Of a stretch of DNA of 12,073 bases, positions 1 to 3,000 are shown one piece after another (the stretch's first letter is position 1; the number at the start of each line of letters is the position of its first letter). Position numbers: made by a program. The stretch covers positions 1 through 12,073 of the IMG/VR virus record IMGVR_UViG_2671181085_000001; one strand, given 5' to 3'. The DNA is from a virus. Its lineage: Duplodnaviria > Heunggongvirae > Uroviricota > Caudoviricetes.

Positions 1-3000
1 TGGAAGTGAACAGCACAGACACTGCGGTATGATAAAAAAAGCCGCCAGCGACAGGAATAGACGCTGGCGGTGCTAATACCCATGGAAATACAAAAGCAAG
101 ATTCTTTCGTGCAGAGCCTTCTTTTTAATGAAAACACTTCCTGTTGTCAATAATAACGGTAAGAAATTAAAAAACGCCAGTTGCCGTAAGCGACTGGTGG
201 GGGAGCGCCATGGACACTCCGAAGAAATGGTGCAGTGAGTGTTTTTAAATGAAAAATATTCTTATTATCAATATGTGTCAGCGGTATTTGCGGGGTAAAA
301 AAATCCACCAGTAAGCACAGGGAGAAATGCGTCATGCTTCTGGTGGAAATGCAACTGCGGTGAGGTTTTATTGTTATATTGGTAAATTTTCTACACAAAA
401 GCGATTCTTAATGTCAACACGTTTGACAGGGAATTGTTGGGCACTCAGAGTAACTACACGAGGCTGTCAGTGGAGCACTGGCAGCCTTTTTCATGTTGTG
501 AGCTTCCGGATTGCGGGAGGCGGGGTATGTACCAGATGGAAAAAATCACAACAGGTGTGTCATACACCACGTCAGCGGTGGGAACGGGCTACTGGTTCCT
601 GCAGTTGCTGGACAGGGTTTCCCCGTCTCAGTGGGCGGCAATAGGCGTGCTGGGGAGTCTGCTGTTTGGGCTGCTGACATATCTGACGAACCTGTATTTC
701 AAGATTAAAGAAGACCGTCGTAAGGCGGCACGGGGAGAGTAGGTGATGAACCATGAAGAAATGAATCAGCGCTTCAGTCGTCTGGAAAATGAAATTGCTG
801 AACTGAATAAAAAGCTGTCGGTGCTGATGCCTTCTGAAGATGAAAAAAAACGCCGCGATGAGCAGTTTGCTGCGTTTGACGATTATTGTCGGAAAGTGAT
901 GAGCAGAAATCTCGCAGAGTGTTTCAGTATTCATAATGATAATTTCAGTGAGCTGGAATGGGAGTGTAACCGGCCATCCTTTGTTGTATCCGGTGATGAC
1001 GGGAAAATCACCATATCAGAAAATGGAAAAGTAACACTGCCATCGCACCAGCACAGTGAGACGCTCATTGAATTTGCCATTGATTACCTGAAGAACAATA
1101 AAAAACAGGGGCTGATGCAGCGCATTGGTCGTTGCATGGGGTATCTGCAGGTAGCCGCTGAGATTGAAGCGCTGGCCAGTGGTGCGGACAAGGATTCAGT
1201 TGTGCGGGAGGCACTTCTTCGTGATTTTGATAATCCGCCTTTTAAAAAAGTGCCGGCTTACTGGCTTCATCCCGGACTGACTTATCTGAAAGTGCGTATT
1301 TAGTGGGCCTGGGACAGCGGCTGAATATTTAATATATCCATGAACACAAAAATCAAATACGGCCTGTCGGCTGCCGTTCTGGCGCTGATTGCCGCAGGGG
1401 CTTCTGCGCCTGAAATCCTCGACCAGTTTCTGGATGAAAAAGAAGGCAACCACACCACGGCATACCGTGATGGCGCGGGTATCTGGACCATCTGCCGTGG
1501 AGCCACCCGGGTGGATGGTAAGCCTGTTATTCTTGGCATGAAGCTGTCGAAGGGGAAATGCGACCGGGTTAACGCCATTGAGCGTGATAAGGCGCTGGCA
1601 TGGGTGGAGAAAAACATCAAAGTGCCACTGACTGAACCCCAGAAAGCGGGGATCGCGTCATTCTGCCCGTATAACATTGGCCCCGGTAAGTGTTTCCCGT
1701 CGACGTTTTATAAACGAATTAATGCAGGAGATCGAAAAGGTGCCTGCGAAGCGATTCGCTGGTGGATTAAGGACGGTGGCAGGGACTGCCGTATTCGCTC
1801 AAATAACTGTTATGGTCAGGTATCCCGTCGTGACCAGGAGAGCGCGCTGGCGTGCTGGGGAATCGACAGATAAGCAGAATATTTTGCTGATAAATGACGC
1901 TTGCTCACGCGGGCAGATAACACGAAATCCTGCGAACTGGCAAAATGCAAGTGAATAAAGTCAGGAAGATTGTTTTACGCAGAGGCACCGTAATGGTGTC
2001 TTTGTCATTTCTGCGCTTCGCACAAGCGTAAATAAACCAAAGAACCTTTCAGGATGAGCCCTGGTGGATAACCGGCAGTGGTCTGGTTAACCCTCTTTGG
2101 GCTGGTTATTCCTGTGCGCAGGGTTCATCACTAAAAGGAAATAACCGATGAATATGATGACCCTGCCGTTTCACGGCGATTCTCTTTATGTGGTTAACCA
2201 TAATGGCGAACCGTATGTTCCAATGAAACCGATCGTTGAAGGGATGGGGCTGGACTGGAAAACTCAGTATCGCAAGTTAAAACAACGGTTTAATAGCTGC
2301 ATGGTCGAAATGACCATTCAGCTACCAGGTGATACCCAACGTCGCCCTGTTATCTGCCTGGCTTTACGTAAACTTGCTGGCTGGCTTCAGACTATCAGCC
2401 CAAATAAGGTTAAGCTCAAAATCCGAGACAAGGTGATCCAGTATCAGGAAGAGTGCGACGATGTTCTCTATGAATACTGGACGAAGGGTTTTGTCGTTAA
2501 TCCCCGTCGAATGAGTGTGATGGAAGAACTCAATCAGGCTTGTGCTGACATGAAACGGGATAAAAACATTGCCAGTGTGTTTGCTACCGGGCTGAATGAG
2601 TGGAAACAGGTTAAAGCCGCGCATGTATCAAAAATCCGCACATTGATAAACGAAGCGAATCTGCTGATTGATTTTGTCCTGGCTGATACAGGCAAAGGGA
2701 AAATAACAAAGGCGGATTGATGGAGTGGTGGCTAATGATATCGGATAAACTCATAACGCTGGCGAAGATCCTCTGTGTAATCGTCGGCATTCCATTTTTA
2801 GTCATGCTGGTTGCCATTTTCTTTTCCACCGCCTGGCGAGTCCTGACGTTATCGGGACTGGTGGAGTGAAAGAGAGATGAACCGTGTTCTGTGTGTGGTG
2901 ATTATTGTCCTGCTGGTGGCCTGTGGTGCGCTTAGTCTGGGGCTGAATCATTACCGTGATAACGCCATCGCCTACAAAGAGCAGCGCGATAAAGCCACAT

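Follow-up and report, generated by a model that had tools for sequence, protein, structure and literature searches.

In P1 c4/icd-ant and Gifsy-1 IsrK-orf45-anrP, antirepressor genes are under the control of RNA structure and are accompanied by a coupled small open reading frame (ORF). In T4, the genes of both intron and free-standing homing endonucleases carry hairpins that sequester the ribosome-binding site. Small membrane proteins are known as accessories of lysis, as is the case for the antiholin RI of T4, LydB of P1, and the releasin gp25 of Mu. Late operons of lambdoid phages, in turn, are transcribed from pR' with Q antitermination. The locus described here lies in a stretch of 12,073 nucleotides (nt) from a virus of the Caudoviricetes, positions 1 to 12,073 of the IMG/VR virus record IMGVR_UViG_2671181085_000001, which is referred to as the window. 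At 2148-2869, between the endolysin gene R and the spanin genes Rz/Rz1, the window holds a gene for an Ant-like protein (ant) and a small ORF for a membrane peptide (sm), just where an earlier, sequence-only reading had placed them.

The Ant-like protein is a member of the Bro network, whose domain-swapping proteins are said to have been the subject of work by Iyer et al. in 2002. Another gene of this kind, rha (ORF201) of P22 and phi80, is a late-region gene that reportedly inhibits phage growth in IHF mutants, a result credited to Henthorn and Friedman in 1995. Domain swapping within the Bro network is described in PMC10111431.

The genes between R and Rz

The two genes of this interval are probably independent passengers of a Q-antiterminated late operon, neighbours and not partners, a reading to which a probability of about 0.6 is assigned. 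The interval is made up of the following features:

1340-1873, plus strand: R, endolysin/lysozyme of the signal-anchor-release (SAR) type (Pfam Phage_lysozyme, E 4.7e-24), the upstream boundary of the interval
2036-2147, plus strand: structured RNA leader of ant, recognised by its fold, a 22-sequence alignment, and the covariance model (CM) R1
2148-2720, plus strand: ant, Ant-like Bro-network protein of 190 amino acids (aa), with the domains P22_AR_N and ORF11CD3
2720-2869, plus strand: sm, gene for a small single-pass membrane peptide (phrog_4906), 49 codons from the ATG at 2720
2877-3314, plus strand: Rz, i-spanin (Pfam Phage_lysis, E 3e-35)

The peptide gene sm is matched in 1,745 of 5,426 complete E. 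coli genomes (~32%), being contiguous with the 3' end of ant in 694 genomes and with another gene, p60, in 1,039. The latter encodes a 60-aa protein with a C-terminal hydrophobic anchor (phrog_1115, function unassigned) and has its own Shine-Dalgarno sequence (SD), GGGAGGA (for example at 2804-2986 in locus L003). It is unrelated to Ant and takes the Ant slot between R and sm, which gives the order lysozyme-p60-sm-Rz with no Ant in L003, L004, L083-85, L110, and L234-236. The gene upstream of sm encodes a different Bro-family protein (Pfam ANT/KilAC) in L232 and in some Stx1a phages, and in L109 the Ant-sm-Rz block is found behind an M15 endolysin and unrelated holins.

The ant gene, for its part, occurs in many places where sm is absent. 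Protein searches retrieved the short form of Ant (~187-190 aa, P22_AR_N plus ORF11CD3) from E. coli, Salmonella, Enterobacter, Photorhabdus, Xenorhabdus, Serratia, Providencia, Sodalis, Arsenophonus, and Hamiltonella, with Xenorhabdus, Serratia, and others known from the list by name. There is no sm peptide in the short-Ant loci inspected from Salmonella, Providencia, Photorhabdus, Yersinia, and Symbiopectobacterium. In Providencia the gene sits between endolysin and Rz with no small ORF, in Photorhabdus, Yersinia, and Symbiopectobacterium it comes after Rz/Rz1, and in Salmonella it precedes an overlapping 60-aa lipoprotein-like ORF. The sm family is restricted to E. coli-type prophages, with 41 clusters in a search of 5.8 billion sequences, and an exhaustive HMMER search of 1.84 billion representatives returned 29 close, mostly fragmentary relatives and no remote homologues. 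Furthermore, in 9 of the 76 loci in which sm has an Ant context, a shortened ant ORF of 22-167 aa stands beside an intact sm. These loci are the IMG/VR prophage fragments L010, L019, L034, L035, L049, L052, L063, L064, and L067, where sm and Rz are both open.

The sequence-only reading had instead taken Ant and the peptide for one two-gene unit, which could be a module of prophage induction or cross-immunity, or a toxin/abortive-infection-like pair; as a rival model, this becomes an obligate, translationally coupled module, with the membrane peptide as the effector in its toxin version. The adjacency of both genes in the window with a TGATG stop/start overlap fits this proposal, as do their contiguity in the 694 E. 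coli genomes and the frequent toxicity of small hydrophobic peptides when these are overproduced. Nevertheless, each gene is distributed independently of the other, ant decays while sm is kept, and the conserved start of sm lies 15 nt past the overlap, with one variant carrying a TAG in the extension. A promoter scan found no sigma-70 promoter for ant or sm in 1900-2900 and no promoter-like site on either strand in 2148-2869, and the location inside a late operon speaks against a defence role of the two genes expressed from the lysogen. PADLOC returned no defence family for any protein submitted to it, Ant, sm, Rha, and p60 among them, and a defence or toxin assignment was rejected for lack of such a match. 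The two-gene unit is thus contradicted by the distribution data and largely refuted, and a functional pair of Ant and sm is very improbable. The idea of a pair can be given up, and each gene considered by itself.

Two short contigs labelled Xanthomonas pisi DSM 18956 also carry parts of the block. Both L092 (446 bp) and L108 (328 bp) hold sequence of the enterobacterial phage type, with identities to the window of 75% for Ant in L092, and of 100% for the Ant C-terminus and 96% for sm in L108. They most likely represent contamination of the Xanthomonas assembly.

The window itself covers late genes of an Stx2c prophage. It matches the one in E. coli 89-3156 (NZ_CP027366) at 100% identity, bases 1900-3320 included; these bases are 99% identical to Shigella phage POCJ13. 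Every gene is already annotated in the identical RefSeq record of E. coli 89-3156, lysozyme call included, and the same layout is found in 933W, phi24B, P13374, and others, amounting to hundreds of Stx phage records. The peptide is encoded in 276 phage records, among them 933W, phi24B, and Min27. The layout between R and Rz is common, known, and already annotated.

The leader RNA of the ant and rha cassettes

Both proteins of the interval belong to existing families of unassigned or loosely inferred function, and the most interesting part of the locus is the leader RNA that ant shares with the Rha-type gene (here rha) farther downstream. The elements of this second cassette and of the ant leader's 5' flank are listed below:

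2013-2029, plus strand: predicted small hairpin hp0 (GCGCUU-CGCAC-AAGCGU), read from the sequence and seen in the predicted fold
3345-3375, plus strand: intrinsic terminator after Rz/Rz1, also placed at 3345-3365, with a 9-bp stem, 6 GC pairs, and a T run, forming the 5' boundary of the next cassette
3408-3516, plus strand: second leader copy, before the Rha-type gene, with H0 as 3410-3416 paired to 3463-3469 (direct repeats D3 and D10, pairwise alignment, CM)
3517-4059, plus strand: Rha plus ORF11CD3 protein (Pfam Phage_pRha, E 1.7e-21; ORF11CD3, E 4.7e-26; TIGR02681)
Downstream of the Rha-type gene: genes for a gp49-like protein and terminase

The ant leader comprises about 115 nt, and comparison of its relatives shows a conserved RNA fold, predicted to consist of three stacked helices (P1-P3) and a long-range helix (H0), with the SD of ant lying in P1. 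Helix P1 pairs 2045-2057 with 2125-2138 and takes in the GG of the SD AAGGA (2135-2139), P2 pairs 2058-2064 with 2118-2124, and P3 pairs 2066-2075 with 2102-2112. H0 joins 2037-2043 (CCAAAGA) to 2094-2100 (UCUUUGG), that is, the 5' flank of the leader to its apical loop. The structured leader that had been noticed ahead of ant is thereby borne out, with a minimum free energy of -43.1 kcal/mol (z = -3.0) and covariation in 21 of 33 pairs. Single-sequence folds of three leader variants agree on a long hairpin in which CCUUUCAGGAUGA pairs with UCAUCACUAAAAGG and the SD is buried.

The covariation was counted on an alignment of 22 leaders against a hand-specified structure (P1, P2, P3, and H0) derived from the same sequences; 92% of the cells are paired, and the 21 pairs in question change on both sides. 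None of 500 shuffles of the alignment reaches any of the five measures, and sliding the partners by 1-3 columns lowers the pairing to 32-50%. H0 is paired at 97.7%, with up to four pair types per position. This helix cannot be nested with P1-P3, a nested alternative that includes it being 5-8 kcal/mol less stable than P1-P3, and the 5' strand of P3 has a second, local pairing partner. Both features suggest that the leader is either pseudoknotted or a two-state switch.

Several points weigh against this view of the leader. The fold z-scores of the other two variants, -0.9 and -0.4, fall short of significance, the pattern by which 14 of the 22 sequences had been collected fixes parts of P2 and P3, and most of the alignment behind the pair counts also served as the seed of the CM. 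A pseudoknot with an 8-nt linker across ~30 bp looks, moreover, sterically difficult.

The leader is not confined to ant. Two blocks ahead of this gene (2038-2063 and 2119-2153) are repeated before rha (3410-3435 and 3488-3522), and CM R1, which models P1-P3, has two hits in the window and no more, one at 2036-2150 (74.3 bits, E 1.3e-17) and the other at 3408-3519 (76.8 bits, E 2.6e-18). The leader of P22 rha is matched by the model at 104 bits (39528-39646 of NC_002371, locus L231). In other loci the CM places one leader copy before each short gene of the Ant, Rha, KilA-N, or ANT type, and none before the long immI-type Ant genes. Leaders 5' of Ant homologues from six other genera, retrieved by protein similarity and not by RNA motif, form these helices from different sequences. 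Scanning IMG/VR for the motif added more than 120 further copies with 33 protein clusters downstream, and the N-termini encoded behind leader copies include Rha, KilA-N, P22_AR_N, ANT, HNH/AP2-like, and others. The idea that the leader is tied to ORF11CD3, as in an autoregulatory circuit, is weakened, since genes of the HNH/AP2 and ANT types with no obvious ORF11CD3 carry it too.

Rfam gave no hit above the E = 0.1 level in the window and none near the gathering score in 1870-2200, C4 and IsrK included, even when the leader was searched by itself at permissive settings. A weak asX2 match on the minus strand (3345-3423; 26.5 bits against a gathering score of 70, E 0.11) overlaps the Rz terminator and was discarded. 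No description of a shared leader RNA was found in the searchable literature.

The rha cassette (3408-4059) repeats the architecture of the ant cassette, namely terminator, small hairpin, leader of ~110 nt, and a gene for Rha plus ORF11CD3, and the two cassettes flank the sm-Rz-Rz1 block. Upstream of every leader copy inspected there is an intrinsic terminator followed by a small GC-rich hairpin (2013-2029 and 3384-3400 in the window). The sequence of this hairpin differs between copies and its self-complementarity stays (GCGCUU/AAGCGU, CGCGC/GCGCG, GCGC/GCGC, ACGCC/GGCGU). As it precedes every leader copy, the RNA element may extend to ~150 nt. Ahead of the ant copy, a terminator-like hairpin lies at 1981-2003, which the terminator scan did not call. 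The annotated start of P22 rha (GTG 39575) falls inside the apical region of the leader, and the Rha calls of PGAP in L004 and L087 are extended in the same manner; the real start of P22 rha is predicted to be ATG 39644.

The Ant-like protein matches the Pfam domain P22_AR_N (residues 6-114, E 5.5e-44) and phrog_524, 'anti-repressor Ant' (E 8e-105). The Ant-like assignment holds for this N-terminal domain and does not extend to the C-terminal half of P22 Ant, which is missing: in BLASTP against the 300-aa P22 protein, residues 1-127 align with 10-136 at 44% identity and nothing aligns past that. Downstream of residue 120, ORF11CD3 is the sole domain found with Pfam (residues 123-164, E 6e-6), and this C-terminal module bears a weak resemblance to the window's Rha protein. 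With that half of P22 Ant lacking, antirepressor activity is at most putative, and the antirepressor label of this late-region 190-aa gene is, judged by its domains, an annotation by partial homology to one shuffled domain. By the same domain comparison, ant and the Rha gene ~1.4 kb downstream are paralogous Bro-network cassettes, with the same C-terminal module and different N-domains. The Ant-like protein would be a DNA- or protein-binding regulator. Its AlphaFold model has a pLDDT of 80-89 in the N-domain and low confidence in the C-terminal helices. Against such a role stands the Foldseek search of the PDB, whose best matches, the APSES DNA-binding domains of Mbp1, are not significant (E 0.04); those to Ski/Dachshund are not significant either, and no relatives of solved structure were found by sequence. 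A gene named 'ant' is also known from phi24B, where it is placed ahead of qut, close to pR', and is similar to P22 Ant in the C-terminal half of the latter (Fogg et al., PMC3064807). Given this position and this likeness, it appears to be a different gene from the ant of the window.

The ant cassette can be seen as a Bro-network moron, with a leader of ~115 nt and a 190-aa protein whose N-terminal ~120 residues are P22 Ant-like and whose C-terminal ~65 belong to ORF11CD3. Its transcription would come from pR' under Q antitermination, as suggested by its position downstream of stx and S-R and by lambdoid biology, and the late transcript would pass both the hairpin behind R and the terminator behind Rz. 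On this read-through mRNA, ant would be translated weakly or conditionally, gated by the leader, which may switch between SD-closed and SD-open forms by means of the second partner of P3. We tentatively propose, as a possibility that falls well short of even odds, that the leaders of ant and rha represent an undescribed class of pseudoknotted or two-state RNAs, which would gate Bro-network passenger genes in enterobacterial late operons, P22 rha included, in response to some signal. Candidates for this signal are a protein, a small RNA, temperature, and the transcript's 5' end.

Alternatively, the leader might not be an RNA regulator at all but a DNA-level site of recombination or homing, or a coding leader peptide, at the 5' edge of shuffled Bro-network cassettes. 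It does always mark the 5' boundary of domain-shuffled genes, some of them with HNH/AP2 homing-endonuclease-like domains, its long invariant blocks (GGGCUG, GGUUCAU) could be used as recombination handles, and some annotated starts (P22 rha and the PGAP Rha calls) lie inside it. A DNA site would not account for the compensatory changes in 21 of 33 pairs, with at least four pair types at some H0 positions, for CM scores that are strand-specific (74-113 bits, with the reverse strand never exceeding 29), or for an SD that stands consistently at the 3' end of P1. As for the peptide, the ORF that opens at the conserved AUG inside P1 has 3, 5, 7, 8, 19, or 25 codons in varying frame among the 22 leaders, so no peptide is conserved; the 32-codon ORF of the rha copy, which ends in VHH before its stop codon, was rejected as a leader peptide on this variability. 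Both versions are improbable. The regulatory leader, by comparison, offers in its strongly covarying helices a way to test how passenger genes that might do harm are silenced by phages within an essential operon, and it is relevant to the biology of Stx-phage induction and to start-codon annotation, as in P22 rha.

The sm peptide at the distal end of the lysis cassette

Read in frame, the sm ORF at 2717-2869 encodes MEWWLMISDKLITLAKILCVIVGIPFLVMLVAIFFSTAWRVLTLSGLVE. Its hydropathy reaches a maximum of 3.09 (KD19, 19-residue window, residues 17-35), which corresponds to one transmembrane (TM) helix at about residues 17-39 of the 49-aa form. Contrary to the statement that the ORF falls below gene-calling thresholds, it is annotated by RefSeq/PGAP as WP_000455399.1, appears in several phage records as a hypothetical protein or ORF53, and matches phrog_4906 over residues 1-48 (E 1.2e-32), a family with no function assigned. 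A second PHROG of unassigned function, phrog_4169, is matched marginally (E 0.0089). The peptide belongs to no Pfam or NCBIfam family and matches no known holin, antiholin, releasin, or spanin profile, and literature searches by sequence or accession retrieved nothing on it.

The gene was compared across 87 loci from E. coli genomes, phage records, and IMG/VR contigs. Its conservation in frame, which had been named as a check, is complete: a core of 132 nt is intact in 87 of 87 loci, with no indels and no internal stops. Among 10 distinct alleles compared (14 were found), 18 variable sites fall on third, 14 on first, and 11 on second codon positions. Between the two main allele groups (dS ~0.4-0.7) the ratio of nonsynonymous to synonymous substitution rates (dN/dS) is 0.25-0.45, or about 0.3-0.4 in a rounder figure for diverged alleles, and the replacements exchange one hydrophobic residue for another. 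These values point to moderate but consistent purifying selection on the membrane helix. Its strength is only moderate, and some close pairs, with very few substitutions, have a dN/dS near or above 1, which tells against this interpretation.

At the junction with ant (...GAT TGA TGG...), the ant stop occupies 2718-2720 and an ATG 2720-2722, so the overlap is TGATG, of 1 nt, and not the ATGA that had been described. The conserved protein is probably 43-44 aa long, from ATG 2735, instead of the 49 aa first proposed, whose single TM helix and reality as an ORF are upheld. ATG 2735 is likely the universal start: homology with non-Ant contexts begins exactly there, the most distant homologues start with MSDK or MSGK and keep their TM character, PGAP calls a 44-aa form in L109, and the N-terminal extension in Ant contexts varies between MEWWL, MGWL, and, in one variant, an in-frame TAG (ATG GAG TAG). 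In p60 contexts, the ORF has a strong SD of its own (GAAGGGAGGATTAAGCATG), and in Ant contexts the conserved start of this 43-44-codon core falls 14-17 nt past the ant stop. The overlap is frequent in Ant contexts, and the extension behind it is variable. Where TGATG is present, sm may be coupled to the translation of ant and ATG 2720 may be used, which counts against full independence of the two genes; the length difference of 3 nt in the extension is in frame and keeps ATG 2720 usable.

Regardless of the upstream gene, sm is part of the distal lysis cassette and ends 7-11 nt ahead of Rz. The start of Rz follows the sm stop after 7 nt in 82 loci and after 11 nt in 5, and the SD of Rz (GGAG/GGGG) lies inside the last sm codons. 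In the window the spacer measures 7 nt (2870-2876); the tight packing noted earlier is there, with one nucleotide less than the 8 that had been counted. In all loci examined, sm directly precedes the last gene of the lysis cassette, which is Rz or, in one lineage, a small lipoprotein gene. This lineage weighs against an absolute linkage to Rz, as the sm homologue of L232 precedes a 60-aa lipoprotein gene and not Rz. No Phage_lysis (Rz) gene is called in the L232 locus. The 60-aa lipoprotein-like ORF (3558-3740 in L088, from Salmonella, and 2640-2822 in L232) has a lipobox LLVGC and a mature part of ~28 residues with three Cys, and gave no Pfam match; in L088 it overlaps the end of the preceding ant gene as ATGA, and in L232 it comes behind the sm homologue, at the place expected for Rz. 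Two other associations of sm were considered and rejected. It is not tied to a SAR endolysin/pinholin type, as it is also found behind M15 and GH108 endolysins with other holins, nor to one type of Rz, since near-identical sm genes are followed by Rz proteins sharing 54-100% identity with that of the window.

The peptide has a K-rich N-terminus and an uncharged or weakly charged C-terminal tail, and by the positive-inside rule it would adopt an N-in/C-out topology, like Rz, ahead of which it would be translated on the late mRNA. The peptide may act in the inner membrane as an accessory of the final, spanin-dependent stage of lysis or of a stage close to it, for which the odds are close to even though still below. 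The fuller claim, by which the spanin step has in sm an accessory that had gone unrecognised and that roughly one in three E. coli genomes carries, is rather unlikely.

Two other explanations have to be weighed against an accessory role. The peptide itself could be functionless and its ORF a translated spacer, which unfolds the mRNA, hands ribosomes to Rz, and replaces the overlap between R and Rz known from other lambdoid phages. The endolysin and Rz genes of P22 overlap by 4 nt, and in the window the inserted DNA parts R from Rz; the constant spacer of 7-11 nt, the position of the Rz SD within the last sm codons, and a dN/dS just moderately below 1 are all compatible with such a function. 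A pure coupling ORF, however, would need neither 43 codons nor a membrane helix, and sm is conserved in length at exactly 43 codons, with 9 invariant residues (K10, L11, I12, C19, V20, V22, F26, W39, and L42 are the conserved residues named) and ~12 nearly invariant ones. Its replacements are conservative and hydrophobic even between alleles with a dS of ~0.5, and the TM nature of the peptide persists out to the most divergent homologues, which makes the spacer quite unlikely. It is also conceivable, though unlikely, that sm is an ordinary small membrane moron, concerned with superinfection exclusion or host physiology and unrelated to lysis, that has settled at a recombination-permissive boundary before Rz. 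The gap between R and Rz is a hot spot for differing small membrane ORFs across prophages, such as p60 and the TM ORF of L086, and sm alleles combine freely with Rz types of 54-100% identity and with three sets of endolysin and holin. Yet sm has no independent promoter or terminator, and in the loci examined it always stands immediately before the last gene of the lysis cassette and never elsewhere in the prophage. An accessory of lysis would be of interest as sm is conserved, uncharacterised, and tightly linked to Rz, and occurs in the Stx phages that have been studied most (933W, phi24B, Sp5-like); it bears on whether lysis has a further accessory, or whether the expression of Rz depends on an upstream coupling ORF.

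Apart from sm, a different single-TM ORF of 45 aa (VFDFSKLIREIRVMAEKLSTWKFILIWLVFVIMASGYFIGQIRWW) was seen at 2365-2502 of L086, another E. coli prophage, ending 1 nt before Rz, which suggests that the slot just 5' of Rz repeatedly hosts small membrane ORFs. The ~85 nt that follow the R stop (1874-1958, AGCAGAATATTTTGCTGA...AAGTGAATAAA) are conserved whichever of Ant, p60, and the L086 ORF comes next, and the sequences of these contexts diverge beyond that stretch. The remaining features of the cassette are:

434-742: S21-type holin
743-1303: 186-aa protein of unassigned function (phrog_1085), between holin and endolysin
3046-3261, plus strand: Rz1 o-spanin ORF embedded in Rz (Pfam Rz1, E 4e-20), with its true start inside the ORF

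The 186-aa protein, which has no Pfam match, is the first split of the lysis cassette mentioned in the sequence-only reading, and in related prophages its slot holds a YdfR-family protein or a frameshifted copy.

Comparison with described systems

Like the small membrane lysis accessories T4 RI, P1 LydB, and Mu gp25, sm encodes a small inner-membrane protein within the lysis cassette. It differs from them in having no sequence or family match and in being shorter (43-44 aa), with ~10 periplasmic residues, and it is linked to the spanin end and not to a type of holin or endolysin.

The leader invites comparison with two kinds of RNA control. P1 c4/icd-ant and Gifsy-1 IsrK-orf45-anrP likewise combine an antirepressor-family gene, a structured mRNA, and a small ORF in the operon, with the gating being a proposal in the present case. 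Their small ORF is upstream and coupled to the antirepressor, whereas sm is downstream and independent, and the Rfam models of C4 and IsrK have no match in the window. The likeness to the T4 homing-endonuclease hairpins consists in an SD held in a helix on a read-through transcript, for a passenger gene inside an essential operon. The leader of the window is far larger than those hairpins, with three helices and a long-range helix, and no internal late promoter was identified by the scan.

At the protein level, the Ant of the window shares with the immI Ant of P22 the N-terminal ~125 residues (P22_AR_N, 44% identity) and lacks its C-terminal 165 residues (P22_AR_C/ANT-type), carrying ORF11CD3 instead. 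The P22 gene has its place beside the arc/mnt repressor genes and the sar antisense RNA, unlike the window gene, which sits in the late lysis cassette between R and Rz; long-form Ant homologues behind an Arc/Mnt-like (ribbon-helix-helix) gene have no leader. With two network domains, the window Ant is a member of the Bro network, which includes Bro-N, KilA-N, Rha, ANT, P22_AR_N, and ORF11CD3 (PMC10111431), and for which a shared structured RNA leader is not described in the searchable literature. The nearest counterpart is P22 rha, which lies just after Rz/Rz1 behind a terminator and has the same leader, an arrangement shared by the Rha gene of the window. The ant cassette departs from it in being inserted before Rz and in carrying P22_AR_N rather than Rha as its N-domain.

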